Positions 21,209-35,069 of a stretch of DNA of 64,000 nt are shown piece after piece. Each line of letters opens with the position of its first letter. Within the stretch, counting starts at the first letter, position 1. Below the pieces are notes generated by a model, which saw only the letters and a list, made by a program, of their open reading frames with translations, was not told where the DNA came from and did not search any database. The DNA comes from an uncultured Haloferula sp. GTDB taxonomy: Bacteria; Verrucomicrobiota; Verrucomicrobiia; Verrucomicrobiales; Akkermansiaceae. A program made the position numbers and the translations under genes. The stretch spans positions 160,001 through 224,000 of the forward strand of contig CBFGTS010000001.1 in the NCBI GenBank assembly GCA_965652295.1. Reading direction: 5' to 3'.

Positions 21209-21282
21209 CCGCCGGGTCCGGGAAGCAGTGGCGGCGAGTTTTCCCGGAATAGATGCCGCCCTGCCTACTCCAACCCGGGTCC

Positions 21283-21831
21283 ATGAGCGAATTCGAGGCA
21301 TTGGTCGACGCGCACTACGAGGGGCTTTACCGCTTCGCCCTGTCGTTGGCCAAGAATCGTGACACGGCTGCGGATCTCGTTCAGCAAACCTTCTGCATCT
21401 GGGCCCGGAAAGGGGACCAGCTTCGCGACCGGTCGAAGGCCAAGACCTGGCTTTTCACCACCCTCCACCGTGAGTTTCTCAGCCACGCGCGGAGGACGCG
21501 GCGCTATGCGGACGGGGAGCTGACCGAGGAAATCATCGAACGGGCCGGTGCCGGAGAAGACGATGCCGATCGCCAGCTCGATGGTCAGCGCGTGCTCGAA
21601 TTGCTCGGCGGACTTGACGAGACCTTCCGTGCGCCGATCACGCTCTTCTACCTCCAGCAGCACAGCTACAAGGAGATCGCCCAAATCCTCGACATCCCGA
21701 TCGGGACGGTGATGTCGCGCATTTCCCGGGCGAAGGAGATGTTGAAAAAGCGCATGACCCAGGAACCGGCCAGCGCGCCGAAGAACATCCTGCAACTGCA
21801 ACCCGAGCACCTGCGCAAGCACCATGGATAG
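21283..21831 (+). CDS. ECF RNA polymerase sigma factor
   Basis: LYRFA, AADLVQQTF, KTWLFT; region 4 SYKEIAQILDIPIGTVMSRISRAK. Confidence 0.95.
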   Translation: MSEFEALVDAHYEGLYRFALSLAKNRDTAADLVQQTFCIWARKGDQLRDRSKAKTWLFTTLHREFLSHARRTRRYADGELTEEIIERAGAGEDDADRQLDGQRVLELLGGLDETFRAPITLFYLQQHSYKEIAQILDIPIGTVMSRISRAKEMLKKRMTQEPASAPKNILQLQPEHLRKHHG

Positions 21832-22732
21832 GGAACAGGCACGATTCATCCTCCGGTCGTTCCGCGCGAGTAGCGCGGACGCGAGCGACGCGGAGTTCGC
21901 CGAGGCGCTGGCCTTGGCGGCGAACGACCGCGAGCTGGGCGAGTGGCTCGCCCGCGAGCACGCGACGGACACCGCTTTTGCCGCGGCCCTGAGCCGTGTG
22001 AGTTTGCCCGAAGGGTTGCGCGAGGAAGTGCTCGCATCTTTTGATGCCACCGGGGACACGCCGGTGGAGCGTGATGGCGCAGACCAGCTGTGGTCGTCCG
22101 CTCTCGCTTCCGTTTCTCCGCCTTCCGGTCTGCGGGCGGAAATCCTCGCCGCCATGGAGATGTCGGCTCCGCGGGTGATCCGACGGCCGGCGTGGAAACG
22201 ATTCGCCCTGCCTCTCGCCGCTGCGGCGGGCATCGCACTCGCCTTGGTGGTGACCCGGCCCGGCGCTTCGCCGCCCGCGGTTCCAGTGGCTGCGTTGCCG
22301 ACAGCGCCATCCGGTGCCGTACCGATCAGTCACGTCGAGGATTCCGCCATTTCCCTGCTCGAATCTCCCGGTTTCACGCTCGATCTCAGCAATCCGGATC
22401 ACGAAGTGCTTTTCCAACACATCCGCAAGTCCGGCCGCGCCTGCCCTGGCGGCGCCGTGCCGAAGGGCCTTGAAGACATTCCCGGCCTCGGCTGCCGCAA
22501 CCTCGAAGTGGAGGGAAAGGAAGGAGCCATCGTCTGCTTCCGCCGGGCCGAGGGCGACGTGGTCCACCTCGTGGTGTTCCGGCAGTCGGACATCAGCTGC
22601 AAGCTGCCGACCTGCGGCCACCCGAAACTCGGCAAGCACGGCGACTGGTCGGTCGCCCGCTGGCAGAAGGACGGCCGCGTCTTCCTGCTGCTCGGCCACG
22701 TGCCGGAAAAGCAGCTCGACGAGCTGTTCTGA
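21824..22732 (+). CDS. Probable membrane-anchored anti-sigma factor
   Basis: Overlaps the sigma gene; helical N-terminal domain, single TM (LAAAAGIALALVV), Cys-containing C-terminal domain. Confidence 0.75.
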   Translation: MDREQARFILRSFRASSADASDAEFAEALALAANDRELGEWLAREHATDTAFAAALSRVSLPEGLREEVLASFDATGDTPVERDGADQLWSSALASVSPPSGLRAEILAAMEMSAPRVIRRPAWKRFALPLAAAAGIALALVVTRPGASPPAVPVAALPTAPSGAVPISHVEDSAISLLESPGFTLDLSNPDHEVLFQHIRKSGRACPGGAVPKGLEDIPGLGCRNLEVEGKEGAIVCFRRAEGDVVHLVVFRQSDISCKLPTCGHPKLGKHGDWSVARWQKDGRVFLLLGHVPEKQLDELF

Positions 22733-22741
22733 GCCGCGGTG

Positions 22742-23497
22742 CTACGGGAAAGCCAGTAGTTTCACGGCAAGACCGATGCCGATCGCGGCGACGATGATCC
22801 GGACGATGTTGGCCGGGATCCGTTGCGCGTAGTGGGCTCCGATGAAATAGCCCGGAAATGCGCCCGCCAACAGGACCAGCGTCAGAGGTAGGTCGTAACG
22901 ACCGCTGATCAGGAAACCGATCGTCGCGGCCGTGTTGCAGAGGGCACCGAGGAGATTCTTGAGCGCGTTCATCCGGTGGACGTCGCGAAATCCCAGCAGA
23001 CCCAGCCCGGCCAGCATCATGATTCCGATCCCTGCCCCGAAGTAGCCGCCGTAGATCGCCACCACGCTTTGAAACGCCATCGCCTTCGGCGTCGGTCCCA
23101 CGGGCTCAGCGGCGTGGGCGCGGGTCCAGCGGCGCAGCGGTTCGTTGAAAAGGAAAAGCCCCGTGGCGAGGAGGATCAGCCATGGCACGGAGGCTTCGAA
23201 GATGCTCTCCGGCATGGCCAGCAGCAGCCACGCGCCGATGCCGCCACCGATGAGCGAGACGAGTCCCATCGGCAGAATCCAGGCCCGGACCTCGCGCAGC
23301 CGCTGGCGGAACGACCACACCGAACCCGGGATGCCAAACCACAGCGCGATCGTGGAACTCGTATTGGCCATCACCGGAGGCAGGCCGGCCGCGAGCAGCG
23401 CGGGAAAGGTGAGCAGCGTGCCGCCGCCGGCAATGGCGTTCACCGCCCCGGCGGCGAAACCGGCGAGCAGGACGAGCCAGGGAAAGGGATCGGGCAC
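22742..23497 (-). CDS. Sulfite exporter TauE/SafE (TSUP) family transporter
   Basis: NAIAGGGTLLTFPAL, ANTS, YGGYFGAGIG, NALKN. Confidence 0.9.
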   Translation of the reverse strand: MPDPFPWLVLLAGFAAGAVNAIAGGGTLLTFPALLAAGLPPVMANTSSTIALWFGIPGSVWSFRQRLREVRAWILPMGLVSLIGGGIGAWLLLAMPESIFEASVPWLILLATGLFLFNEPLRRWTRAHAAEPVGPTPKAMAFQSVVAIYGGYFGAGIGIMMLAGLGLLGFRDVHRMNALKNLLGALCNTAATIGFLISGRYDLPLTLVLLAGAFPGYFIGAHYAQRIPANIVRIIVAAIGIGLAVKLLAFP

Positions 23498-23543
23498 GGC
23501 CCCAATAGCATCGCACACAAGGTTTCCCGCAAGGCTGAACGCC

Positions 23544-24443
23544 TCAACGGCGCGTCACCCGCAGGCGGAAAAAATCGCGTCCCGATTCCGGAGCGGGAAA
23601 CACCACGCTCAGGATCTCCAGGCCGGCGTCCGCCGGGTGCGGACCCACCGAAACGCTCTGGATGGCGCCATCGAAAGTCGCCCAACCCGAGAGATCGGTG
23701 GAACGCTGGATTTCGTAGTGGAAGGCCGCACTCGAAAACTGCGAGCCGGTGCCGGAAGACCCGACGCGGCGGACGAGGTTCAAGGTGCCGGGGTGGAGGT
23801 CCAGCGGCAGCGGATCGGACGTGCCGGGATCGCTGCCCGTGGCGAATTCGATCAACGCGCTCCGACCATCGCCATCCGCGTCGGAATCATCCGGATTCGC
23901 CAGTGCCACGGCCTGATGCAGCTCGCCGCCGAGCGTGGCCGAGTTGACGCCGGGCTCACGCACGGAAACCAGCACCGCGCCGGGGCTCATGAGTGCGGCC
24001 GAGGTGGTCTGGCAGGAGATCGAACCGAATGCCGGCACGGTCCAGGTCGGAGCGGAAAAAACGAGCTGACCGGTGGCTTGGGCAAAATCCGGAGCGTCCA
24101 GAATCCACAGGTAGATGCGCTTGCCGGATTGGCTTGAGGCGTCGACCGAAGCCGCTCCGGAAAAGGAGCCGGCAAAACCCTGTGCCACGCCATTGAAGGT
24201 GCCGACCGCAGTCGTGGCATAGCTCACGAAATGCGCTTGGAGGGTGAAGTGGTCGTTTCCCGCCGCGATCACCTCCGCCGGGGTCAGATCGAAGGTGCCA
24301 ACCATCACCCGGCAGCCGACCGGGAGGTCGAGACCCTGGATGCTGCCCACCCCTCCGCCGGCACCTTGGGCACCATAGCTCACGGAAACCCCGTCGGCGC
24401 AGGCGCAGGCCGCCACCAGGAAGAAAGCGAGGGCGCGGATCAT
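23544..24443 (-). CDS. Secreted hypothetical protein
   Basis: Signal peptide; DSDADGDG...EFATGSDP; YEIQRSTDL..W; terminal RDFFRLRV. 4-nt overlap with the upstream giant gene. Confidence 0.8.
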   Translation of the reverse strand: MIRALAFFLVAACACADGVSVSYGAQGAGGGVGSIQGLDLPVGCRVMVGTFDLTPAEVIAAGNDHFTLQAHFVSYATTAVGTFNGVAQGFAGSFSGAASVDASSQSGKRIYLWILDAPDFAQATGQLVFSAPTWTVPAFGSISCQTTSAALMSPGAVLVSVREPGVNSATLGGELHQAVALANPDDSDADGDGRSALIEFATGSDPGTSDPLPLDLHPGTLNLVRRVGSSGTGSQFSSAAFHYEIQRSTDLSGWATFDGAIQSVSVGPHPADAGLEILSVVFPAPESGRDFFRLRVTRR

Positions 24444-27400
24444 TCCTCGTAGATGAACGGTTGCGGGCGTTCCCAGAGGCCGTCCTCCGTGAAACGGAAG
24501 AGCAACCAGGCAGATGCCGGATCGATCGGACGGATGGAAGCGTCGGTCAAATCATCCCCGATCGCGCGCCAGCCACTGCCGCCGGGATTCGTCGCGTCCT
24601 TTTGATAGTAGGGCTGATAACCCCACGGGCTTTCGAGATAGACGTGGCTGTGGTTGTTGGCGTCCGGGCTCACGAGGAAGAACGGGTTCAGCCCGAGAGT
24701 GCCGAGGGTGGCGTGCTCCACCGGTGTCTGGCTGCCGAGGATGCGGATGCCTTGGTCCATCACGCGCAGCCGCTTGCCGAGCACCACCTCGCCGTGGAAC
24801 CAGAGATCGAGCGGCTGATCCTCCGGATGGCGGAAGGTGAAGCCCTCGCCCGGTTGGACGATGCTGTCGGCCATGTCCTCGAAGGGGTCGGCGGTGGAAC
24901 GCCAGCCCGCCCCTCCCAAACCACCACTACGATAGTAGTAGTCGCTGAACGAGCCGTCCGGGTTCACGAAGGAAATCAGATCGCCCCCGTCCGGCGTGCC
25001 GGGGACGAGTCCGTCCTCATTGAAGCGTCCGAAGAGCGAAGCCAGCGAATGGCTACGGCGGATGACGTAGGTGCCTCCCCCGCCGGATGCCAGCCGGGCG
25101 GCGAGCAGCTCGTTCGCCCGACCCAGCTCCAAGGTGCTGCTGGCGTTTCCGGTGATGGCCATGAGCGCGCCCTCGGCGGGGCCGGAGGTGATCTGCACTT
25201 CGTGATCGAGCCACTGGCCCGGCGTCCAGGACGTCCGGGTGTCGGTGAGGGTGAAGCCGTCGGCCGTGGTGAAGCGGCCGCCATCCAGCGCCCCGCGGGC
25301 AAAGGGAGGAGCGAAGAGGTTCTGCTCCCGTGTCACCGGTCGCTTCAGCCAGCCGAAGGGGGCCGAGCGCACGGTGCCGCCGCCCACATCCACCGCGAGG
25401 CGGAGGTAGGCGGAATCGAAGGCATAGAGGCTCGATCGCACCTCCTCGGTGCCATCGGCGAGGTCGGAGACGTCGATGCTGAGGACGTTCGCTGGAATAT
25501 CGCTGCCTCCGGGACCATTGAGATCGGCGAGGGTGCCCCAGCCGCTTTCGAGATCGAGCGTGCCTTCCAGCCAGTAGCTGACGCCGGCGCGAGTGGCGGA
25601 GGGACGCGTGAAGACAAGCTCGAAGCGCCGCGAGCCATCGGGCAGGATCACCGCCTCCAGATGCGGGGTGCGGAGGACGCCGGCAAGAGCGCCGGGGACG
25701 GTGGAAACGGTGGCATCGCCACGGGTCGGATCGGTTGCCAGGGCGAACTCGATGCCATCGTTCAGCATGTCACCATCGTGATCATCCGCCGGATCGCCGC
25801 TCAGGCCGTAGCGGCCGGCCCATTCCTGCCAAGTGCCCGCGACGGGCGGCTGGCTGACCTCGACGATGACGTTGGCACTGGTCGTGCCGGCCGCGTTGGT
25901 GGCGGTGAGGGTGTAGGTGGTGGTCGAGTTCGGAGCTACGGTGATCGTGGTGGAGCCGCGGACGTCGGTGCCGTTCATGCTCAGGGTGGTGAGCGGCGAG
26001 CCTCCGGAAACGACCGTCCACGAGAGGGTGACTTCCGTTCCCGCGGTCACGGCATCGGGGGAGGCGTTGAAGACGATGATGTCCGGGGCACCGGGCGCGG
26101 GTGCGGCGGCATCGGCGTCCTCGATCTGCAGGAGGTAGGCGGCGAGGTCGTCGAGTTCCTGCGAGGTGAGGTCCACTCCGTCGTGGGCGGAAATGGCGGC
26201 GGCGACGGTCGTTGCGGAGCCATCGTGAAGGAAGGGAGCTCCATCGTGCAGGCCGCGCAGCGTGGGCGTGTCGAGACCGGTGAGAGTGCCGCCGAGGCGG
26301 GATCCACTGGAAGGCTTGAGCGTGCCGATGTCATGCAGCGGGGCTTTCCCCGAGTCGGTGAAATTCACGCCGCTGTGGCAGGAGGCGCAGTTCTCGGCGA
26401 TGAAGATGTTTTTCCCTCGCAACGCGGCGAGCGTATTCGCGCCGTCCTGCTGGCGGTGCGGCGTTTCGGCGAAGCCGGACAGCGAGGTGACGTAGGCGGC
26501 GAGTGCGTCGAGATCGGCGCTGCGGCCGGCGTTCGGAGTGCCAAGCGGCGGGTGCGGCGTCCCGTTGATCATCCCGTTGCCATCGGCCAGGTCGCGGACC
26601 TGGTTGTCGAAATCCTGGACTTCGTCGAAATTGGCGGACCAGTGGAGCGGGCCGTGGCCGGTGCCGGCGCGGCCGCGCAGGTCGGTGGTATTCCGAAGAC
26701 CTTCGCCGAAACCGGTGAAGTCCCAAACGCGACCATCGTGGCCGCCTTCGTTGTGGCAGGCGGCGCAGGAAATGTAGTCCTGCGAGCCCATGCGGTCGTC
26801 GGCTGCATCGTAGAAGAGCTGCTTGCCGAGCAGCACGTCGGGGGCAAGGGCGTCGGTTTCCACCGGGCTCAGTGTGGCGAGCAGTGTGGCTTGGGGGACG
26901 CCGTGGTTGATGATGTCGGACACGGCGTGAAGCGTCACCGTGCGGCTCATGAAGTTGTGGGTGAAAAGCACGCTGCCATCCCGCGAAAGCGCGAGGCCCT
27001 GAGGGGCGCGGCCGACCGGGATGCGGAGGAGTTCTTGTCCGCCGTAGACATCGATCACCGAAACCTGGCGCGAGCCTTCGAGGGCGACGAAGAGGAACAG
27101 GCCGAAAGGATCGAAGATGGCGGTGGACGGCACGGATCCGTCGTCGTGGTCGATGCGGCGCTCCGGCAGTTCCGCGCCAGCGGCGAGGTCGATGACCGAG
27201 GTGATGGCGCGAACGGTGGTGTCGTGGGTGAGGTTTCGGCCATCGCGCAGCACGCCGCGCTGGATGTTGTCCTGCTTCGAAGGCACCCACGCGAAGTCGC
27301 CCGCGGGTGAGATGACGGCGGGCCCGAGGTAGTTCGGAAGGCCCCGGCCACCGCCGCCGGAGTCCGGCTTCTGCGAGGGGGCGAGCAGGATGGTGTCGAG

Positions 27401-30400
27401 GGCCGACATGGCCGCGGTATCGACCTTCACGACTTCGCCGCCGCCTTGGTCGGGCGAGGGCTCACCCGTAACCTCACCGGGGACGAGCGGCGTGATGAAG
27501 CGCGAGACGTAGGCGGTGATGCCATCGGCCGTGATCGAGACATGCCGGGGGTGCGGGCCGACTTCGGCGAGGGCGAGGATTTCGCCGCTGGCGGGATCGA
27601 GCTTCGCGAGCTGGCCGGTGGCTTGCAGTGCGACATAGGCGGCCGAGCCATCGGGAGCGAAGGCGAGCCCGAAGGGCGCGGATCCGCGAGGTAGGACGAT
27701 GTTACGGGAAATATCGTAGGTGGCGGGATCGATGACCGCGATGGTGGCGTCACCCGCGTTGGCGACCCACAGCGAACCGTCCGGCGCGAAGGCGAGGGAG
27801 TGGGGTTTTTCACCGGTCGGGATCTCGGCGATGAGGGCACCGGTGGTGGTGTCGAGAGCGCTGACGGAGCCGTTGTCCGGGTTCACGTTCCAGACGCTGG
27901 CTGGTGCCGTGACGATGGCCTGCGAGACGGTGGGTGCGGGGCCGGAACTTACGAGCCGGATGTTCTGGTAGAACGTGGTGACGGTTTCCGTGCCGCTGGC
28001 ATCAATGGCGGTCAGCGTGACGAGAAAACGCCCGGGGCGGCTGAAGACGTGGCGGTTGAAGGGCTCGGTGGTGGTTTCCTCCGGTGATTCGTCGCCGAAG
28101 TTCCAGAGGTAGAGGACGTTGGTTCCGCCCGTGGCATCGATGTTGAAATCCGTCTCGCTGCCCACCCAGTTCACCCCGGTGATGGGCGGCTGGATGGCGA
28201 GCGCCGGATGAATCGTCCAAAGGAAACTGGTGGAGGCTGACTCACCGGAGGGATCGGTGGCGGTGAGCGTGACGCTCATGGTTACCGGAGCGGTGGGAAC
28301 GCCGAGGATTTCCCCGGTGCTCGGATTCAGCGTGAGTCCGGAGGGCAGGCCGCTGGTGGAAAATGAAAGTGGATCGCCGTCGGGATCGCTCGCCTGCGGT
28401 TTGAGGGTGACGCCGGTGCCGACGGTGTGCGCGCGGTCGGCGATGCTGGCGAGGGTGGGCGGGCGGTTCGGTTCGAAGGGCGAGAGGTAGGAGCCTTCGA
28501 CGATCACCTTGGCGGGATCTCCCGGGCGCTGCCAGGCGAGGTTGATGTGGTCGTTGCCGCTGTCTTCCTTGTGAAGAATTTCAAGGTAGTAACGGCGTCC
28601 TCCGACGAGCGTCACGGGAGCGGACTGCTGGCTTGGCGATTTGTCCCACTGGCTCAGGGTCGAGCCGCCTTCGATGCTGGCGATGGCAATGGCTTGCTCG
28701 GGCGATTCGTCGCTGCTGAGCAGGAGTCGCGCGGAGTCGTCGGCGGAAATCCAGAAGACGTAGGCACCGCTCACGGGAGTATGGATGTATCCTCGGACGC
28801 GGGTTCCGTAGCTGTTGCCCGAGTTGACGCCTGCGGGAAAGCCGACGATGGCATCCTGAGCGGTGGGCGTATCCGGGAAGCGTGGGTCGGAGGTCAACAG
28901 GTCGATCGTATTGCCCGGGAGGCTGGTCCACGTTTCGCGCAGCAGCAATCCCTCGCCTTGCCCCGGGAGCCGGATGGTCCACACGAAGCCCACGGTGTCG
29001 GAGGCGGCACCATCGACGTGGACGGACAGCGTGACCGGGAACACGCCTTCGGCGGTGGGACTGCCGGTGATGCGGCCGGTGGAGGCGTTGATCTGCAAAC
29101 CGGGAGGAAGCCCGGTGGCGGTGAAGGTGACGCCGGCGGCATCGAACGCCGAGGTGGGCGGCGTGAAGGAAACGGATTGGCCGGTGATGTCGACGCGATC
29201 GCTGATTTCGGCGAAGGAGGGAAAGCCCACGGTGAAGCGGAGGAATACCTCGTTGTCGGCATTGCGGTTGGCGGACCAGATCCAGCGGGCGTCGGAGCCG
29301 GTGGGAAAGCCTTTCACGACGTCGCCCCACGGCGCGGATCCATAGGGGCCGTATTCGGTGGCGGCGGCCCACGCGGAGTCGTCGAAGCCGGGCAGCTGCC
29401 AGCCTTCGGGTGCCGAGGTCGCGACCTTCCAGCCGGAGTCGGTGAGGACCGTTTTGCCATCGATGGCGAACTGGCCGATCACCCCACCGACGTCGCCGGA
29501 ATCCATCGCGCGGATGGCGAGGGTGGCGCGGCCATCGGTGCTGAAGGCGGCACGCAGGGCTTTCGTCCAGTCGGTGCCGATGGCGACGAGTTCGCCGTTG
29601 ACGTAGAGTTCGTGGCGGTTGTCGGCGGCGATGACGGATTCGTTCTCCGGTTGGATGGCGCGGAGGCAGCGGGAGGGGACGATCGCTTTCGGGGTCCTCG
29701 GGGACGACCACTTCAGTTGCACGACGGCTTCGTTGATGGCTTGGAAATATTCCAAGCGGATGGGAACGGGCACGCCGGCGATGAGTTGGGCGGTGCCCGA
29801 AAACTCGGTTGCGGCGTGGCCGCTCCATTCATCGATGGCCTTCGTGCCGTCGATCCAGAGCCTCACGCCATCGTCGCTGTTCACGTGGAATTGGTAGGTT
29901 TCGGTGAATTCGGGAATCACCCATCCGGTCCAGGTCGTTTTCCAAGTGTTGGGACCTAGCAGATCTGGGAACGGGCTTTCCGTGCCGTAGTCGAAGTCCA
30001 CCACGGGGTCGACGCGGGATACTTCGCCGTCCGTTTCCGAGTCGGAATAAACTCCGAGGAGCCCGCTGGCGGGGGCGTCGATGGTTTCGCGGACGTGGAT
30101 GATGGAGGCCTTCGAGTAGGAGCCATTGGCATCGAGGCCGAAGAGCATCCAGTAGCCGGGCACCATCACGTTGGCATTGGGATGGGCGACGAGACGGTAG
30201 TCACCGGGAGTTTTCTCCGAGAACGGGATGTTCAGAAAACGCTGGTCGGTGGAGAGGCCGTGGGTGGTGGCCATCATGCGGATCATCGCAAACCGATGAA
30301 GCCCGGGCGTGGCATTGACGCCGAAAACCGATCCGAGCGTGACACTGTCCGGCGCGGACGAAAGGACCGGCCGAGTGGCGGGCTGGCCGTTCGATGAATA

Positions 30401-31648
30401 CAAGGACGGCGGCGTGTAGAGCTGCGCGTCGGTGTGGGTGAAGGAGGCATTGGGGTCCCCCGGGGTGTAGCCACCTCCGCCGGAGAACACGCGGCCGTCC
30501 GGCAGAAGCAGGGCGGTGGAGTGGTAGTTCCGCGGAACCGAGATGTCGGCAACGGTGCGCCAGGTGCCGGTTTGCGGATTCCAGATCTCGGAGGCGAGGA
30601 TGGTGCCTTGGTCGCTGAACTTGATGCCTGAGGTGTTGCCGCCGACGACGAGAACTTCTCCCGTGGGAAGCACGATCGCGTTGTGAAAACGCCGTGGGAA
30701 CTGCATCGGCGAGGTGAGGGCGACGGTCGGAGGGGTGGTGTTGAGGTCGATGGTGTAACTGGTGGTCGAGGAAGTTTTCGCGTTGGTGAACGACGAAGCA
30801 CCGCCGGCGACGAGGAATTTACCGGACTCGTACATCACCACGCCGGCGTGCTTCGGGTAGTAGTCGCCGGGGACCTGGAGGCCGGCGGAAACGCGGGTGC
30901 CGTTGCCGTCCGGGGACACCCAGTGCATTTCCTTGGTGGGGCCGAAGTGGAACAGGCGGCCATCGGGCGCGACGAACACGTAGGGCCACCAATTCGACTC
31001 AAAGCCGGTGGCACCTGCGACGGGTTGCCAGTTGATGCCGCCGAGCCGCTGCCAGATGTCGGTTTCGGGCGAATACCGCTCCGCCGTGTTGGGGCCGCCG
31101 TTGCCGGAGACGGTGAAGACGTCGCCGTCCGGCAGCGCGACGCTGGTGGTGTACCAGCGGGGATCGAACATGTTTTTGACCCGCTGCCAGCGATTCTTCC
31201 GCCAATCGTAGGCCGACGAATCGCGGACGGTGTAGCGCCCACCCATCGTCTGGAGGGTGCCGTCGGTGCGCATCACGAGGTGGGCGCAGAACATCTCGTG
31301 ATCGAGATAGAGGTCGTTGGAAAACGTGCCGGTGGCCGGGTCCCACACCGCCCACTGGGTTTGGGTTTTCGTGCCCGGCCAGTGCTTCACCTCCTGCCCG
31401 GAAAACGTAAGGATCTTGCCGTTCGGCAGGGAGGCAGCGGAGACCGGCGTGTGCGGCCACGTGACGATCGCACTCCAGCTGCCGGCCTGGTTTGAGGGGC
31501 CCGGAGGTGCGGGCGTGCCGTCGAACCCGGGAAGCAGCGCGGCGGCATCGGCCCAAAAGGCGTCGTCCTCGGCGTGTTGGTTCGGATCGGCGAGCAACGG
31601 CAAAGCGAGTGCCGCTGCCAAAAGAGGCAGAAGGGATCGGGGGGACAT
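24440..31648 (-). CDS. Giant secreted protein: AA5/galactose-oxidase-like copper radical oxidase + PA14 x2 + Ig/PKD + YVTN beta-propeller + di-heme cytochrome c domain + TIGR02597-like C-terminus
   Basis: HEMFC, PRWY, RNYHS, TTH..STDQR; SDDG/SADD PA14 motifs; LPPGL.I...TG.I.G.P Ig repeats; CAACH and CASCH heme motifs. Confidence 0.88.
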   Translation of the reverse strand: MSPRSLLPLLAAALALPLLADPNQHAEDDAFWADAAALLPGFDGTPAPPGPSNQAGSWSAIVTWPHTPVSAASLPNGKILTFSGQEVKHWPGTKTQTQWAVWDPATGTFSNDLYLDHEMFCAHLVMRTDGTLQTMGGRYTVRDSSAYDWRKNRWQRVKNMFDPRWYTTSVALPDGDVFTVSGNGGPNTAERYSPETDIWQRLGGINWQPVAGATGFESNWWPYVFVAPDGRLFHFGPTKEMHWVSPDGNGTRVSAGLQVPGDYYPKHAGVVMYESGKFLVAGGASSFTNAKTSSTTSYTIDLNTTPPTVALTSPMQFPRRFHNAIVLPTGEVLVVGGNTSGIKFSDQGTILASEIWNPQTGTWRTVADISVPRNYHSTALLLPDGRVFSGGGGYTPGDPNASFTHTDAQLYTPPSLYSSNGQPATRPVLSSAPDSVTLGSVFGVNATPGLHRFAMIRMMATTHGLSTDQRFLNIPFSEKTPGDYRLVAHPNANVMVPGYWMLFGLDANGSYSKASIIHVRETIDAPASGLLGVYSDSETDGEVSRVDPVVDFDYGTESPFPDLLGPNTWKTTWTGWVIPEFTETYQFHVNSDDGVRLWIDGTKAIDEWSGHAATEFSGTAQLIAGVPVPIRLEYFQAINEAVVQLKWSSPRTPKAIVPSRCLRAIQPENESVIAADNRHELYVNGELVAIGTDWTKALRAAFSTDGRATLAIRAMDSGDVGGVIGQFAIDGKTVLTDSGWKVATSAPEGWQLPGFDDSAWAAATEYGPYGSAPWGDVVKGFPTGSDARWIWSANRNADNEVFLRFTVGFPSFAEISDRVDITGQSVSFTPPTSAFDAAGVTFTATGLPPGLQINASTGRITGSPTAEGVFPVTLSVHVDGAASDTVGFVWTIRLPGQGEGLLLRETWTSLPGNTIDLLTSDPRFPDTPTAQDAIVGFPAGVNSGNSYGTRVRGYIHTPVSGAYVFWISADDSARLLLSSDESPEQAIAIASIEGGSTLSQWDKSPSQQSAPVTLVGGRRYYLEILHKEDSGNDHINLAWQRPGDPAKVIVEGSYLSPFEPNRPPTLASIADRAHTVGTGVTLKPQASDPDGDPLSFSTSGLPSGLTLNPSTGEILGVPTAPVTMSVTLTATDPSGESASTSFLWTIHPALAIQPPITGVNWVGSETDFNIDATGGTNVLYLWNFGDESPEETTTEPFNRHVFSRPGRFLVTLTAIDASGTETVTTFYQNIRLVSSGPAPTVSQAIVTAPASVWNVNPDNGSVSALDTTTGALIAEIPTGEKPHSLAFAPDGSLWVANAGDATIAVIDPATYDISRNIVLPRGSAPFGLAFAPDGSAAYVALQATGQLAKLDPASGEILALAEVGPHPRHVSITADGITAYVSRFITPLVPGEVTGEPSPDQGGGEVVKVDTAAMSALDTILLAPSQKPDSGGGGRGLPNYLGPAVISPAGDFAWVPSKQDNIQRGVLRDGRNLTHDTTVRAITSVIDLAAGAELPERRIDHDDGSVPSTAIFDPFGLFLFVALEGSRQVSVIDVYGGQELLRIPVGRAPQGLALSRDGSVLFTHNFMSRTVTLHAVSDIINHGVPQATLLATLSPVETDALAPDVLLGKQLFYDAADDRMGSQDYISCAACHNEGGHDGRVWDFTGFGEGLRNTTDLRGRAGTGHGPLHWSANFDEVQDFDNQVRDLADGNGMINGTPHPPLGTPNAGRSADLDALAAYVTSLSGFAETPHRQQDGANTLAALRGKNIFIAENCASCHSGVNFTDSGKAPLHDIGTLKPSSGSRLGGTLTGLDTPTLRGLHDGAPFLHDGSATTVAAAISAHDGVDLTSQELDDLAAYLLQIEDADAAAPAPGAPDIIVFNASPDAVTAGTEVTLSWTVVSGGSPLTTLSMNGTDVRGSTTITVAPNSTTTYTLTATNAAGTTSANVIVEVSQPPVAGTWQEWAGRYGLSGDPADDHDGDMLNDGIEFALATDPTRGDATVSTVPGALAGVLRTPHLEAVILPDGSRRFELVFTRPSATRAGVSYWLEGTLDLESGWGTLADLNGPGGSDIPANVLSIDVSDLADGTEEVRSSLYAFDSAYLRLAVDVGGGTVRSAPFGWLKRPVTREQNLFAPPFARGALDGGRFTTADGFTLTDTRTSWTPGQWLDHEVQITSGPAEGALMAITGNASSTLELGRANELLAARLASGGGGTYVIRRSHSLASLFGRFNEDGLVPGTPDGGDLISFVNPDGSFSDYYYRSGGLGGAGWRSTADPFEDMADSIVQPGEGFTFRHPEDQPLDLWFHGEVVLGKRLRVMDQGIRILGSQTPVEHATLGTLGLNPFFLVSPDANNHSHVYLESPWGYQPYYQKDATNPGGSGWRAIGDDLTDASIRPIDPASAWLLFRFTEDGLWERPQPFIYEE

Positions 31649-31711
31649 GGGGGGTGGGGGTGCGGAAGGTTACGTGGGACTACGGACCGGCGTATTACGC
31701 GATCGCGGAGG

Positions 31712-33439
31712 TCAGGGGGGAGGCGGGGGCGAGAACCGGGTGTCGGTGAGAGCGTGGAGGAAGGCGAGGAGGTCGTGTTTGTCCTGCTCGCTCAGGCCGA
31801 GCCCATCATGCTTGGAAAGGTTCGGGTCCAGCGTGGGGGAGGGGTGGATGCCGGAATCGTAGTGTTCGATCACCTCTGCCAGCGTGGCGAACCGGCCGTC
31901 GTGCATGTAGGGCGCGGTCAGGGCAACGTTGCGCAGCGAGGGTGTCTTGAATTTCCCCAGATCGGCTTCGTTTTCCGTGATCCCGGCCAGCCCGGCATCC
32001 TTGGAGAAGTCCGAGTCCAGGCCGTTGTTGTGGAAGTCGTGATTGGTGAAAAGCGCGCCGCCGTGGCAGTGAAAGCAGTCGGCACCGTGGAGGCCGCGGG
32101 CTGGATCGTTCTCGGTGATGAAAAGCTGGAAGCCCCGCTTCTCCTCCTCGCTGAACTGGGTTTCGCCGCGAAGCGCGCGGTCGAAGCGGGAGTCTTGGGA
32201 GAGCAGGCTCAGCAGGAACTGCTCGAGGGCGAGACCGAGCCGCTCTTCGGTCACGCCGGGCGACCCGAACGCCTTGGCGAAGGCTTCGGCGTACGTCTTC
32301 TCCAGCGCGGTGACCAGCTCGCCGAGATCGTGGCCCATTTCATCCGGATGCTCGATCGGCACGCGGATCTGCTCGCGCAAGGTCGGCGAACGACCGTCCC
32401 AGAAGAACGAGCGGTGCCAGGCGAGGTTGAAGAGGGGCATAGAGTGGCGGGCTGACAAGCGGCCGCCGATGCCGGTGCTCAGGGGTTTCGGATCGGAAAA
32501 CGCCAGCTCCGCCTGATGACAGGACGCGCAGGAAACCGAGCCATCGCGCGACAGGGCGGGGTCGGAAAACAGGGCCTTGCCGAGGGCGATGCCCTCGCGG
32601 GTGAGGGGATTGTCGGCGGGCAGGGTCACCTTGGGGAAACGCGGTGAGATTTCCAACCGGTAGGGTGTGGTCCCGGGAGGGGCGTTCACGGCGGGGGCCG
32701 CCGTGTTTTCCTGGCTCATCTCACGGCGGGTGGCGAGGAAATGAAAGGCACCGGCGGCGTGGACGGCGATCTCACCCGCCAAAGCATCTCCCTCGCGCGA
32801 GTGAGTGCTGGGCTTCGCGTCGGCCAGGTCGAACGCCAGCACCTTGTCGAGATCCAGCGCGAGCCGGAGCGTCTGGTGGTCGGCAGGGAGCTCGATGGGC
32901 ACGGTGATCTCCAAATGCTGCGGGTCGTTTCCGATGTGGTAGGAGAATCCGCGGTCCTCCTGACCCTCGCGCGCCAGCCGGCCTTCGAGGGCGAGGAAGA
33001 TGAAGCCGGTCTGCCATTCCCAGTGCATGTTGTTCAGTGCGGGATTCAGCGGGTCGTCCGCGCCGAAGCTCGCCGGGTCGGCGTGGTTGAGCTTCGGCGG
33101 CGGGCCGAGGCGGAAACGCACCGCCTGCATCGGCTCACCGGGAAGCCCGCGGAGGGGAGGAGACAAGCCCCGACCGGCCGCGCTGAAGAAGCCGTTCCAG
33201 TCCGCGTTCGGCAGCCAAGTTCCGTCGGACTTTTGAAACGACACCTGGGAGAGAATCACATCTGCCCGGGAAATCGCCACGCCTCCGCGGATTTCCGAGG
33301 TGAGGGGGCGGTCACCGCGCACGAATTCGACCTCCAGCCGAAGATCCCGCGCGTCCTGCGACCAAGCGGTTGCGGAAACGAGAAAGATAAACGGGGGGAG
33401 GAGAAAGAAGAATGGGAGCTGGCGGAATGCACCGAGCAC
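31712..33439 (-). CDS. MbnP-like copper-binding domain fused to MbnH/MauG-like di-heme cytochrome c peroxidase
   Basis: NHADP...L...MHWEWQTGFIFL.LEG...YHIG (MbnP WxW motif), then DNPLT..G.ALGK.LF.D, CASCH, FFWDGR, CFHCH, FKTPSLRN..LTAPYMHDG. GTG start at 33439 inferred from the signal peptide and an extended -10 TGCTAGGAT. Confidence 0.88.
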   Translation of the reverse strand: MLGAFRQLPFFFLLPPFIFLVSATAWSQDARDLRLEVEFVRGDRPLTSEIRGGVAISRADVILSQVSFQKSDGTWLPNADWNGFFSAAGRGLSPPLRGLPGEPMQAVRFRLGPPPKLNHADPASFGADDPLNPALNNMHWEWQTGFIFLALEGRLAREGQEDRGFSYHIGNDPQHLEITVPIELPADHQTLRLALDLDKVLAFDLADAKPSTHSREGDALAGEIAVHAAGAFHFLATRREMSQENTAAPAVNAPPGTTPYRLEISPRFPKVTLPADNPLTREGIALGKALFSDPALSRDGSVSCASCHQAELAFSDPKPLSTGIGGRLSARHSMPLFNLAWHRSFFWDGRSPTLREQIRVPIEHPDEMGHDLGELVTALEKTYAEAFAKAFGSPGVTEERLGLALEQFLLSLLSQDSRFDRALRGETQFSEEEKRGFQLFITENDPARGLHGADCFHCHGGALFTNHDFHNNGLDSDFSKDAGLAGITENEADLGKFKTPSLRNVALTAPYMHDGRFATLAEVIEHYDSGIHPSPTLDPNLSKHDGLGLSEQDKHDLLAFLHALTDTRFSPPPPP

Positions 33440-33461
33440 AAAAAGAATCCTAGCATGGCGG

Positions 33462-33980
33462 TCAAACTCCGGATGCGGCCGGTCCCAGCCGTTTGCGATA
33501 CCGCGTTTCGTCGAGCCACGCTTCGCCGAGCTGAAATCGTTTCTCCGAGCCGTCCGCCTCAAACCCGGCTTCTTCGTAAAACGCTCGGGCGGCCATATTC
33601 TCTTTGAGAACCCAGAGAACGATTTCATCCCAGCCGGCCTCCCGGGCAAGCTCATCGGCAAACTTCATCAGGCGCGACCCCAGACCCTGGCGCCAGTGAG
33701 CCGGGGAAACATACAGGGCCCAGATTTCCCCGCAACGGAGGCCGCACCCGTCACGGTTGGCTCCGACCGAAATCCACGCCGAAACCCGTCCACCAGAGGT
33801 GTTCACATAGGTCCGGCTCTCAGAGCGTTCTAAAATCCCGCGCCAGCGATCCGCCCGTTGGCGAACGTCCATGCTGTCCAAGGTTTCGTCGGGCACGATC
33901 CCCCGGTAGGCGGTCTGCCACGCCTCCACATGGACCAAAGCGATCTCCTCGGCATCTTTTACCGTCGCGATGCGGATCAC
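33462..33980 (-). CDS. GNAT family N-acetyltransferase
   Basis: W..AYRGI.P, ALYV.P.HWRQGLGS.L, LWVL.EN..AR.FYE..GF. Confidence 0.9.
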   Translation of the reverse strand: MIRIATVKDAEEIALVHVEAWQTAYRGIVPDETLDSMDVRQRADRWRGILERSESRTYVNTSGGRVSAWISVGANRDGCGLRCGEIWALYVSPAHWRQGLGSRLMKFADELAREAGWDEIVLWVLKENMAARAFYEEAGFEADGSEKRFQLGEAWLDETRYRKRLGPAASGV

Positions 33981-34010
33981 GGTCTTGAAATGGCCGGTTA
34001 GGTGGTGCCG

Positions 34011-34982
34011 CTAGACGATTTTCAGGCGGGCGAGGTCCTGGGTGTCGATGAGGCCGACGGGATGGCCCTCGGCGTCGAGGACCACGACATCGTCGACGCG
34101 GTGCGAGCCGATGGTCTGAACCGCCTCGGCGGCGAGGGCGTCGGCGGCGACGCTGATCGGGTTGCGGGTCATCAGCTCGGCCACGGGTCGATCGCCGACG
34201 TTGGCATCCTGTTGGTAGGAGCGTGCGAAGTCGCCGTGGGTGAAGATTCCGGCCAGCCCGCCGTTTTCCTGAACAACCACACATGCGCCCGACCGGGCGG
34301 CGGACATGGCGGTGAGGGCATCGCGGACAGTGGCCTGGTGCGGCACTGCGGCCAGCGCCTCGCCGGCGCGCATGATGTCGGAAACTTTCGTCAGCAGCGC
34401 CCGGCCGAGGGCTCCGCCGGGGTGGAAACGGGCAAACTCCTTCTCGGTGAAGCCTCGTACTTCAAGCAGGGCCATCGCCAGAGCGTCGCCCATCACGAGC
34501 ATGGCGGTGGAGGACGAGGTCGGGGCGAGATTCAGCGGGCAGGCCTCGCGCTCGACGGAGGTGTCCAGCGTGACATCGGAATGATGGGCGAGGGTGGAGT
34601 CCGTGCGGCCGGTCATACCGATCAGGCTGATGTCGAACCGCCGGAGGTGGGGGAGAAGGTCGAGCAGCTCGACCGTTTCTCCGGAATAGGAGAGGGCGAT
34701 CACCGCGTCGCCATCGCACACCAGGCCGAGGTCGCCGTGGAGGGCGTTCTGGGAGTTGAGGACGACGGCGGTGGAACCGGTGGAGTTGAGGGTGGCGGCG
34801 ATCTTGTGGCCGATGTTCCCGCTCTTGCCGATGCCGACGACGACGACCTTGCCGCGGTTTCCGACGGCTTGGTGGAGAAGTTCGACCGCGTGCCCGAAGG
34901 CCCCGTCCAGCCGCTGCCCGAGAGCGCTCAGGGCGGCGGCTTCCATCTCGATGACCTGCTTGCCACGGGTGATCGCGTCCAT
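34011..34982 (-). CDS. kdsD: Arabinose-5-phosphate isomerase (KpsF/GutQ family, SIS + 2 CBS)
   Basis: GIGKSG.IG.KIAATL.STG, HGDLG, EACPLNLAPTSS, FHPGGALG, CBS pair. Confidence 0.93.
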   Translation of the reverse strand: MDAITRGKQVIEMEAAALSALGQRLDGAFGHAVELLHQAVGNRGKVVVVGIGKSGNIGHKIAATLNSTGSTAVVLNSQNALHGDLGLVCDGDAVIALSYSGETVELLDLLPHLRRFDISLIGMTGRTDSTLAHHSDVTLDTSVEREACPLNLAPTSSSTAMLVMGDALAMALLEVRGFTEKEFARFHPGGALGRALLTKVSDIMRAGEALAAVPHQATVRDALTAMSAARSGACVVVQENGGLAGIFTHGDFARSYQQDANVGDRPVAELMTRNPISVAADALAAEAVQTIGSHRVDDVVVLDAEGHPVGLIDTQDLARLKIV

Positions 34983-35069
34983 GCCCGGAGCGTGGGGGGA
35001 AACAGTGAGGGAGCAAACCGCAAACTTTGGCTGCGGGGGAGGCATCCAAACATGCGACACCTGCCCATG

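Follow-up and report, generated by a model that had tools for sequence, protein, structure and literature searches.

What does a fusion of MbnP and MbnH do directly upstream of an exported copper-radical oxidase (CRO)? MbnP binds Cu through a kynurenine (Kyn) made by MbnH, with His, Met, Kyn174, and water as ligands, and what such kynurenine copper proteins do in the cell is described as an open question (PMC11951088). Conservation of the pair extends well past the producers of methanobactin (PMC3621798), and loss of mbnP or mbnH in methanotrophs leaves Cu on methanobactin (PMC13729199), a phenotype consistent with a copper-handling role. The question is raised by two genes in a 64,000-nucleotide (nt) stretch of DNA from an uncultured Haloferula sp. 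(contig CBFGTS010000001.1; hereafter the window), whose source genome is 98% complete:

31712..33439, minus strand: MbnP-MbnH fusion (MbnPH), 575 amino acids (aa), Sec-type signal peptide, GTG start at 33439; core gene 1
24440..31648, minus strand: exported copper-radical oxidase/di-heme fusion, 2402 aa; core gene 2

An initial annotation had taken these genes, with the two that follow them, as a copper-delivery and oxidase system in which MbnPH is a dedicated Cu chaperone or maturase. We find that the conserved unit is the pair and not the four genes. A functional link of some kind between MbnPH and the oxidase is very probable, and we lean, with reserve, toward MbnPH being the periplasmic copper supplier of the adjacent oxidase, as Sco would be in a sister branch.

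The conserved pair and the Sco genes

Among 300 other genomes of the family, 113 have an MbnP match and 10 a full-length oxidase. MbnPH lies directly upstream of the oxidase in 8 of these 10, and in the remaining 2 both genes are at contig edges, correctly facing. Three more oxidase carriers, from a second family, were found among 400 genomes of the phylum, and in all three the sole MbnP match is directly upstream. In total, of 13 other Verrucomicrobiales genomes with the oxidase, 11 have the two genes side by side and 2 have them at contig ends, and 9 of the 13 have no MbnP match besides the copy linked to the oxidase (or the equivalent copy at a contig end). A pattern scan of GTDB, whose counts cannot be added to these because the DNA is partly shared, returned 15 verrucomicrobial loci: 11 with adjacent genes (one of them split and another partial), 1 with an intervening gene, 1 untestable, and 2 (L054 and L055) without adjacent MbnPH, both from genomes with MbnP elsewhere. 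In 13 of 22 pairs the MbnPH stop codon overlaps the oxidase start codon, and in 18 of 22 the gap is at most 11 nt. We read the overlap of frames as translational coupling, and the two genes are presumably cotranscribed. The initial annotation had named recurrent synteny as a check, and it recurs across two families together with this coupling. Downstream of the oxidase, by comparison, the 299-aa gene of the window is present in 4 and TauE in 1 of the 18 loci with DNA there, so that neither belongs to the conserved unit, and the four-gene system once proposed was rejected.

All 20 oxidase-linked MbnPH copies fall inside one set of 29 rows (support, 97) in a quick tree, which allows a single origin for them with support 27. 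A link that reflects descent alone, with the pair traveling as a mobile block and having no functional contact, is compatible with such trees and with flanking genes that vary between loci, as in a moving block. Yet the linkage persists in two families and down to oxidases about 50% identical, with the remaining neighbors all changing, the reading frames are coupled, and both partners are copper related; we consider descent alone very improbable.

Neighbors of oxidase genes in metagenomes were clustered blind, and one dominant family emerged, Sco/SenC. The set comprises 67 loci with the AA5 oxidase gene in view (13 of 80 were dropped for lacking one); these same loci supplied the sequences for the Sco profile, six members were Pfam confirmed, and near-duplicate rows were kept. 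Sco lies within 1.5 kb of the oxidase at 37 loci, MbnPH at 4, both at 0, and neither at 26. All 37 adjacent Sco genes are co-oriented with CxxxC intact, and 36 of 38 Sco cores retain the His that serves as third ligand. With sufficient flank (32 metagenome loci), the counts are 19 with Sco, 3 with MbnPH, 0 with both, and 10 with neither, while 33 genome loci have MbnP in 19, Sco in 0, and neither in 14. As a control, Sco is beside none of the 42 MbnPH loci not linked to an oxidase. In a FastTree phylogeny of the oxidase module (79 rows; L219, L067, and short-flank loci excluded), Sco-linked and MbnPH-linked modules part on one branch (support, 99; 1 change). The presence of Sco beside the oxidase in the sister branch supports a copper-supply role for MbnPH.

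Domains of the two proteins and the flanking genes

Gene 1 is divided as follows:

32834..33346, minus strand: MbnP domain, aa 32-202, with H119, H139, H168, and, just past it, H213 and D218 (PF20243, fold, and conservation)
33014..33028, minus strand: MHWEW motif, aa 138-142 (M138; W140, the predicted kynurenine site; W142)
31712..32674, minus strand: MbnH/MauG-type di-heme domain, with CASCH 304, CFHCH 455, and axial Tyr527

The fusion identity given at first is borne out by profile searches, with PF20243 at 75.1 bits (cut-off, 27), PF03150 at 170.8 bits, two CxxCH motifs, and MHWEW. Against TIGR04052 the protein scores 35.5 bits, below the cut-off of 140. The best NCBIfam model for the di-heme half is TIGR04039 (229 bits), which is under its curated cut-off of 362.85, and we therefore file this half as MbnH-like; its best match is MbnH itself (6e1c; E value, 2e-45), with Tyr527 aligned to the MbnH Tyr. 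The AlphaFold model (predicted local distance difference test [pLDDT], 87) superposes on 6e1c in VIA with Z 33.3 and a root mean square deviation (rmsd) of 2.0 over 286 aligned residues. Residues 2-211 match MbnP (7l6g_A; Z 16.0, rmsd 3.5, 201 aligned) in a wide VIA search, which recovered 7l6g where it was absent among the matches listed by Foldseek for the whole model.

In a weak profile alignment (E value, 1.5), H119 falls on the VNH segment of 7l6g and M138-W140-W142 on its MAWNW segment; from this alignment and PMC11951088, H119 and M138 would be the copper-ligand positions. W140, H168, H213, and D218 are invariant in 62 verrucomicrobial fusions, H139 and the axial Tyr are each kept in 61 of the 62, and all 20 oxidase-linked copies have both W140 and W142. 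Because H139, H168, H213, and D218 are near-invariant while H119 and M138 vary, the metal site of the fusion family, if any, is probably His-rich rather than canonical. W140 is a candidate for conversion to kynurenine in a domain that may bind Cu. Two side observations concern this domain. H119 and H129 (33053-33085) compensate, all copies with Asp at 129 having His at 119 (5/5), and WxP or WxQ replaces WxW in seven MbnPH copies (L087, L090, L107, L109, L110, L128, and L130).

The oxidase has five regions, of which the propeller and second di-heme domain were missing from the initial description:

30074..31498, minus strand: AA5 Kelch propeller plus E-set, with the C121-Y166 pair, W165, Y375, H376, and H463
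27971..30067, minus strand: two PA14, two Ig (He_PIG), and one PKD domain; spacer or glycan-binding type
26879..27943, minus strand: seven-bladed YVTN propeller; nearest solved fold, hydrazine synthase beta
26099..26878, minus strand: built-in di-heme domain, with CAACH 1628, CASCH 1754, W1670, D1679, and H1822
24443..25828, minus strand: C-terminal verrucomicrobial surface-type region, with a DxDxD-type module and a weak TIGR02597 match

Judged by sequence, gene 2 is, as first annotated, an AA5 copper-radical oxidase; it has a complete ligand set and is predicted to be active and to release H2O2. Pfam places PF09118, PF07250, and Kelch in its AA5 region, which matches a bacterial "galactose oxidase" (9g8h) over the full length (E value, 1.9e-77), and C121, W165, Y166, Y375, H376, and H463 are all kept in 124/124 homologues with a full AA5 domain. 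The Trp-Tyr motif at the cross-linked Tyr is presumably shared with Streptomyces GlxA. The Arg of the galactose oxidase RSDNH motif aligns to E217, a position that varies among homologues, and the Trp of GGSW aligns to a nonaromatic residue; we take these to be the galactose-binding and stacking residues. As both are replaced, galactose was rejected and is probably not the substrate. The closest titled relatives are from Haloferula species (85% and 77%). The mature N terminus opens with an acidic/His motif, DPNQHAEDD (31560-31590), a possible copper landing site, and 15 of 22 relatives have a visible His in the first 30 residues. Oxidase paralogues occur in tandem or in multiple per locus or genome (L161, L205, and L219; L070-L072), and MbnPH or oxidase genes are split or frameshifted in three loci from metagenomes or metagenome-assembled genomes (MAGs) (L059:4432-6467, L075:9776-14243, and L183).

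The propeller/di-heme part is modeled confidently as a single unit (pLDDT, 93.5; predicted template modeling score, 0.94). For the propeller, 5c2v_B ranks first in both Foldseek and VIA (Z 38.0, rmsd 1.8, 302 aligned); propeller matches took up the fold lists, and the di-heme half is assigned from its best sequence match, hydrazine synthase gamma (5c2v_C; E value, 1e-9). Both CxxCH motifs, W1670, and D1679 are invariant in 237/237 homologues and H1822 is kept in 234/237. H1822 sits where MbnH has its Tyr, and the second heme is probably bis-His and of the electron-transfer type, as in gamma-II. Membership in hydrazine synthase itself was rejected: the domain has only four Cys, lacking the third heme-linking Cys, has Trp at the gamma-His144 position, and comes without an alpha subunit, and NF052342 scores 66.4 against a cut-off of 1250. 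A prediction of a complex between the AA5 propeller and the propeller/di-heme unit gave no verdict (score, 0.00).

Fusion of this module to AA5 is widespread. A search biased toward long proteins found 3440 that match it at an E value of at most 1e-20; of the best 120 long matches, 113 have a full AA5 domain and 3 a partial one, in every case at the N terminus. AA5 is lacking in 92 of the best 120 short matches; many of these are fragments, and stand-alone modules exist, since some lie on long contigs. Without length bias, 80 metagenome loci gave 65 fusions, 12 genes cut at the 5' end, 2 with AA5 in a separate frame, and 1 with none, and so 65 of 68 testable loci are fused.

A built-in heme module bears on whether MbnPH acts as the oxidant of the oxidase and not as its metal donor. 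The His/Tyr di-heme, as bis-Fe(IV), would then form or reactivate the Cys-Tyr radical or modify another residue in the manner of MauG, DtpA, or the tandem peroxidases, with MbnP as a docking or hole-hopping domain. Tyr527 and both hemes are indeed invariant, unlike the canonical Cu ligands, fungal CROs require a gene-linked peroxidase (PMC9770985), and GlxA maturation requires DtpA (PMC4736821). However, a di-heme module is already part of the oxidase in all branches, an MbnH-like flanking gene is found at 0 of 76 non-MbnP metagenome loci, the neighbor in the swapped slot is a copper chaperone and not a peroxidase, and the invariant H139, H168, H213, and D218 suggest a metal site. We regard this role as quite improbable. 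The suggestion that H2O2 from the oxidase drives MbnH found no support either; such a loop is unnecessary because the oxidase has its own di-heme unit, and it would have an ordering problem, because MbnP modification must precede oxidase activity.

Around the pair lie the following genes:

23544..24443, minus strand: accessory gene; 299-aa secreted protein from a hypothetical verrucomicrobial family
22742..23518, minus strand: TauE/TSUP transporter (PF01925), alternative GTG start at 23497; bystander
33462..35060, minus strand: GNAT and KdsD, co-oriented upstream flank outside the conserved unit
33980-33462, minus strand: GNAT, 22 nt from MbnPH
35060-34011, minus strand: KdsD, 30 nt from GNAT

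The four minus-strand open reading frames (ORFs) and their gaps of 63, -4, and 46 nt are as first annotated, as is the TSUP match; the last gap is 46 nt from GTG 23497, a start also present in locus L053 of a relative, and 25 nt for the longest ORF. The run is co-oriented as described and is not bounded at 33439, for it extends upstream through GNAT and KdsD, and co-orientation alone is therefore insufficient to define a unit. GNAT was found in none of the relatives' loci examined, and TauE was rejected as a copper/sulfur partner. An out-of-frame ATG at 33456, 17 nt ahead of the MbnPH start, opens a short ORF; GTG is supported as the start because orthologues too begin VPG or MPG. A gene for an extracytoplasmic function (ECF) sigma factor and a probable anti-sigma gene (21253-22732) converge on the TauE end with a 9-nt gap, an arrangement that recurs in relative loci L053 and L057. 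In Atlas searches, the 299-aa protein matched only hypothetical clusters. GC level is flat over the whole window, and a promoter/terminator scan was at chance level (1 versus 1.1 and 9 versus 9.6) and uninformative for an operon.

Other MbnPH loci and the case for copper supply

MbnP and MbnH are fused in 42/42 non-oxidase loci examined; fusion is the norm in the phylum and not, as had been supposed, special to the oxidase. The reported lack of mbnABC and TonB receptor genes holds for the 48 of 223 listed window ORFs that were picked as likely genes and scanned in Pfam, among which MbnT was not found either. The argument drawn from the missing TonB receptor is not supported, being confined to the window: the genome has TonB receptors near the other MbnPH. 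A second MbnPH fusion there (L001:9283-11052) lies two genes from a convergent TonB receptor. In the stretch L001:9283-12929 (G000:C6, about 231300-234900), this MbnPH overlaps the end of a YHYH gene and is convergent with a run of TonB receptors, and a further MauG-like gene is at L001:18373-19746. YHYH neighbors are often YHYH-sulfatase fusions, and the YHYH protein matches YHYH clusters in Atlas searches. There are hints that YHYH proteins may be copper clients.

Such loci invite a broader role, in which MbnPH is a general envelope copper capture or buffer, cotranscribed with copper-hungry secreted proteins and making no direct handover. MbnP matches occur in 114 of 301 family genomes and the oxidase in 11, YHYH genes accompany most other MbnPH copies, and the two verrucomicrobial oxidases at L054 and L055 have MbnPH only elsewhere in the genome. 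Set against this, oxidase-linked copies cluster in the tree, 5 genomes retain them alongside another copy that is YHYH-linked, and their stop codons overlap the oxidase start in 13 of 22 pairs. General buffering is, in our view, unlikely.

Direct copper supply has to be held against several observations of its own. The Sco/MbnPH split maps to a single branch; it is one event, confounded with lineage, and therefore suggestive rather than statistical. Among testable loci, both partners are missing at 10 of 32 from metagenomes and 8 of 26 from genomes, and the source genome has three above-cut-off Sco genes elsewhere. No MbnP match by PF20243 or TIGR04052 was found in five proteobacterial oxidase MAGs, for which completeness is not given. 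H119 is present in 5, M138 in 4, and both in 3 of the 20 oxidase-linked MbnP domains (both also in 3 of 42 unlinked copies). A YHYH (PF14240) gene is found at 36 of 42 non-oxidase MbnPH loci (L087-L130 and L001) and at 0 of 20 oxidase loci, and as a family MbnPH is therefore not oxidase specific. Finally, Cys-Tyr forms autocatalytically once Cu is present (PMC11951088). The chaperone proposal is partly supported, by synteny and by Sco in the sister-branch slot, and the window protein itself keeps H119, M138, and W140 at positions that match 7l6g in the weak alignment.

MbnPH is largely confined to Verrucomicrobia in these data: it was found at 0 of 8 non-verrucomicrobial fused oxidase loci (6 genomes), and of 41 fused loci from metagenomes with at least 2.5 kb upstream just 4 have it. 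Among 20 loci with neither partner whose neighbors were scanned, 2 have other putative metal-binding genes and the rest housekeeping genes. The two are, after a Myxococcales oxidase, a fusion of a YtkA-like domain (HGHG) and a MauG-like Tyr-type di-heme, parallel in layout to MbnPH (L062:9548-11677), and a heavy-metal-binding-domain gene (PF19335, HMBD) directly downstream of an oxidase (L145:12301-13317). L169 has a downstream catalase gene.

Proposed mechanism and known systems

In the mechanism that we propose, the MbnH domain would oxidize W140, in the MbnP domain of the same chain, to kynurenine, and the MbnP domain would bind Cu and pass it to the apo-oxidase, MbnPH filling the job done by the adjacent Sco in the other branch. 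The exported oxidase would then oxidize an alcohol or aldehyde and release H2O2. By analogy with the separate peroxidase of fungi, the built-in di-heme unit would most likely consume this H2O2 and/or reoxidize the Cu/Cys-Tyr center; alternatively, its hemes may serve electron exit in a dehydrogenase mode. More tentatively, and with considerable doubt on our part, MbnPH fusions may be kynurenine-based copper chaperones for client cuproenzymes, interchangeable with Sco. One clade would serve a self-activating oxidase that recycles its own H2O2 through the built-in unit to keep the Cys-Tyr radical oxidized, and others would serve YHYH proteins as unrecognized secreted cuproproteins.

The locus offers a defined candidate client for an MbnP-type protein, and the Sco that occupies this slot elsewhere is a natural comparator; together they make function testable. 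The oxidase also gives a first functional context for widespread uncharacterized proteins resembling hydrazine synthase beta-gamma, and a CRO with a built-in activator would be of interest to biocatalysis, which has to add horseradish peroxidase (PMC9770985). We found no literature description of MbnPH beside a CRO or of the AA5/di-heme fusion, in a coverage outside which lie the primary MbnH/MbnP papers and supplements, possibly mentioning either.

MbnP and MbnH of Methylosinus trichosporium OB3b (7L6G and 6E1C) share with gene 1 the MbnP fold, WxW, a MauG-type di-heme with axial Tyr, and, as far as the weak alignment shows, the His/Met positions of the window protein. Here, in contrast, they form a single chain below the TIGR04052 and TIGR04039 cut-offs, the family invariants are H139, H168, H213, and D218 and not the canonical His/Met, and the neighbor is an oxidase or YHYH gene instead of methanobactin genes. 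For the AA5 domain, the best sequence matches are PDB 9G8H/9G43 and fungal GalOx 1GOF, which have the full Cu ligand set in common with gene 2 and differ from it at the RSDNH Arg and GGSW Trp.

Hydrazine synthase beta-gamma (5C2V) and its fused homologues (PMC12758564) share the seven-bladed propeller packed against a di-heme domain whose second heme is probably bis-His, whereas the module described here has Trp for gamma-His144, no third Cys, and no alpha subunit and is fused to AA5. In its peroxidase-type Trp and absent third Cys it resembles the non-anammox homologues of PMC12758564; in the available excerpts of that paper, an oxidase fusion is unmentioned and "galactose oxidase" has 0 occurrences.

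Two systems come closest in logic. In Colletotrichum and Magnaporthe, a tandem AlcOx (AA5_2)-peroxidase arrangement (PMC9770985) likewise ties a CRO gene to a heme protein able to activate it by one-electron oxidation, the activator being a separate class II peroxidase there and a fused propeller/di-heme unit, with predicted activation, here. Streptomyces GlxA is a bacterial CRO that is matured with the help of a copper chaperone and of a heme peroxidase; its partners are Sco, ECuC, and DtpA, a DyP peroxidase, and Sco is needed for maturation at low copper (PMC4736821). Unlike GlxA, the oxidase described here has its heme module as a c-type di-heme in the same chain, with MbnPH in the chaperone slot and no CslA cellulose synthase beside it. 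The earlier remark that no pathway of this kind had been described stands for MbnPH in the literature searched and not for the chaperone and heme peroxidase route to a CRO, which is known from Streptomyces; the logic is familiar, and these parts and their fusion are new.

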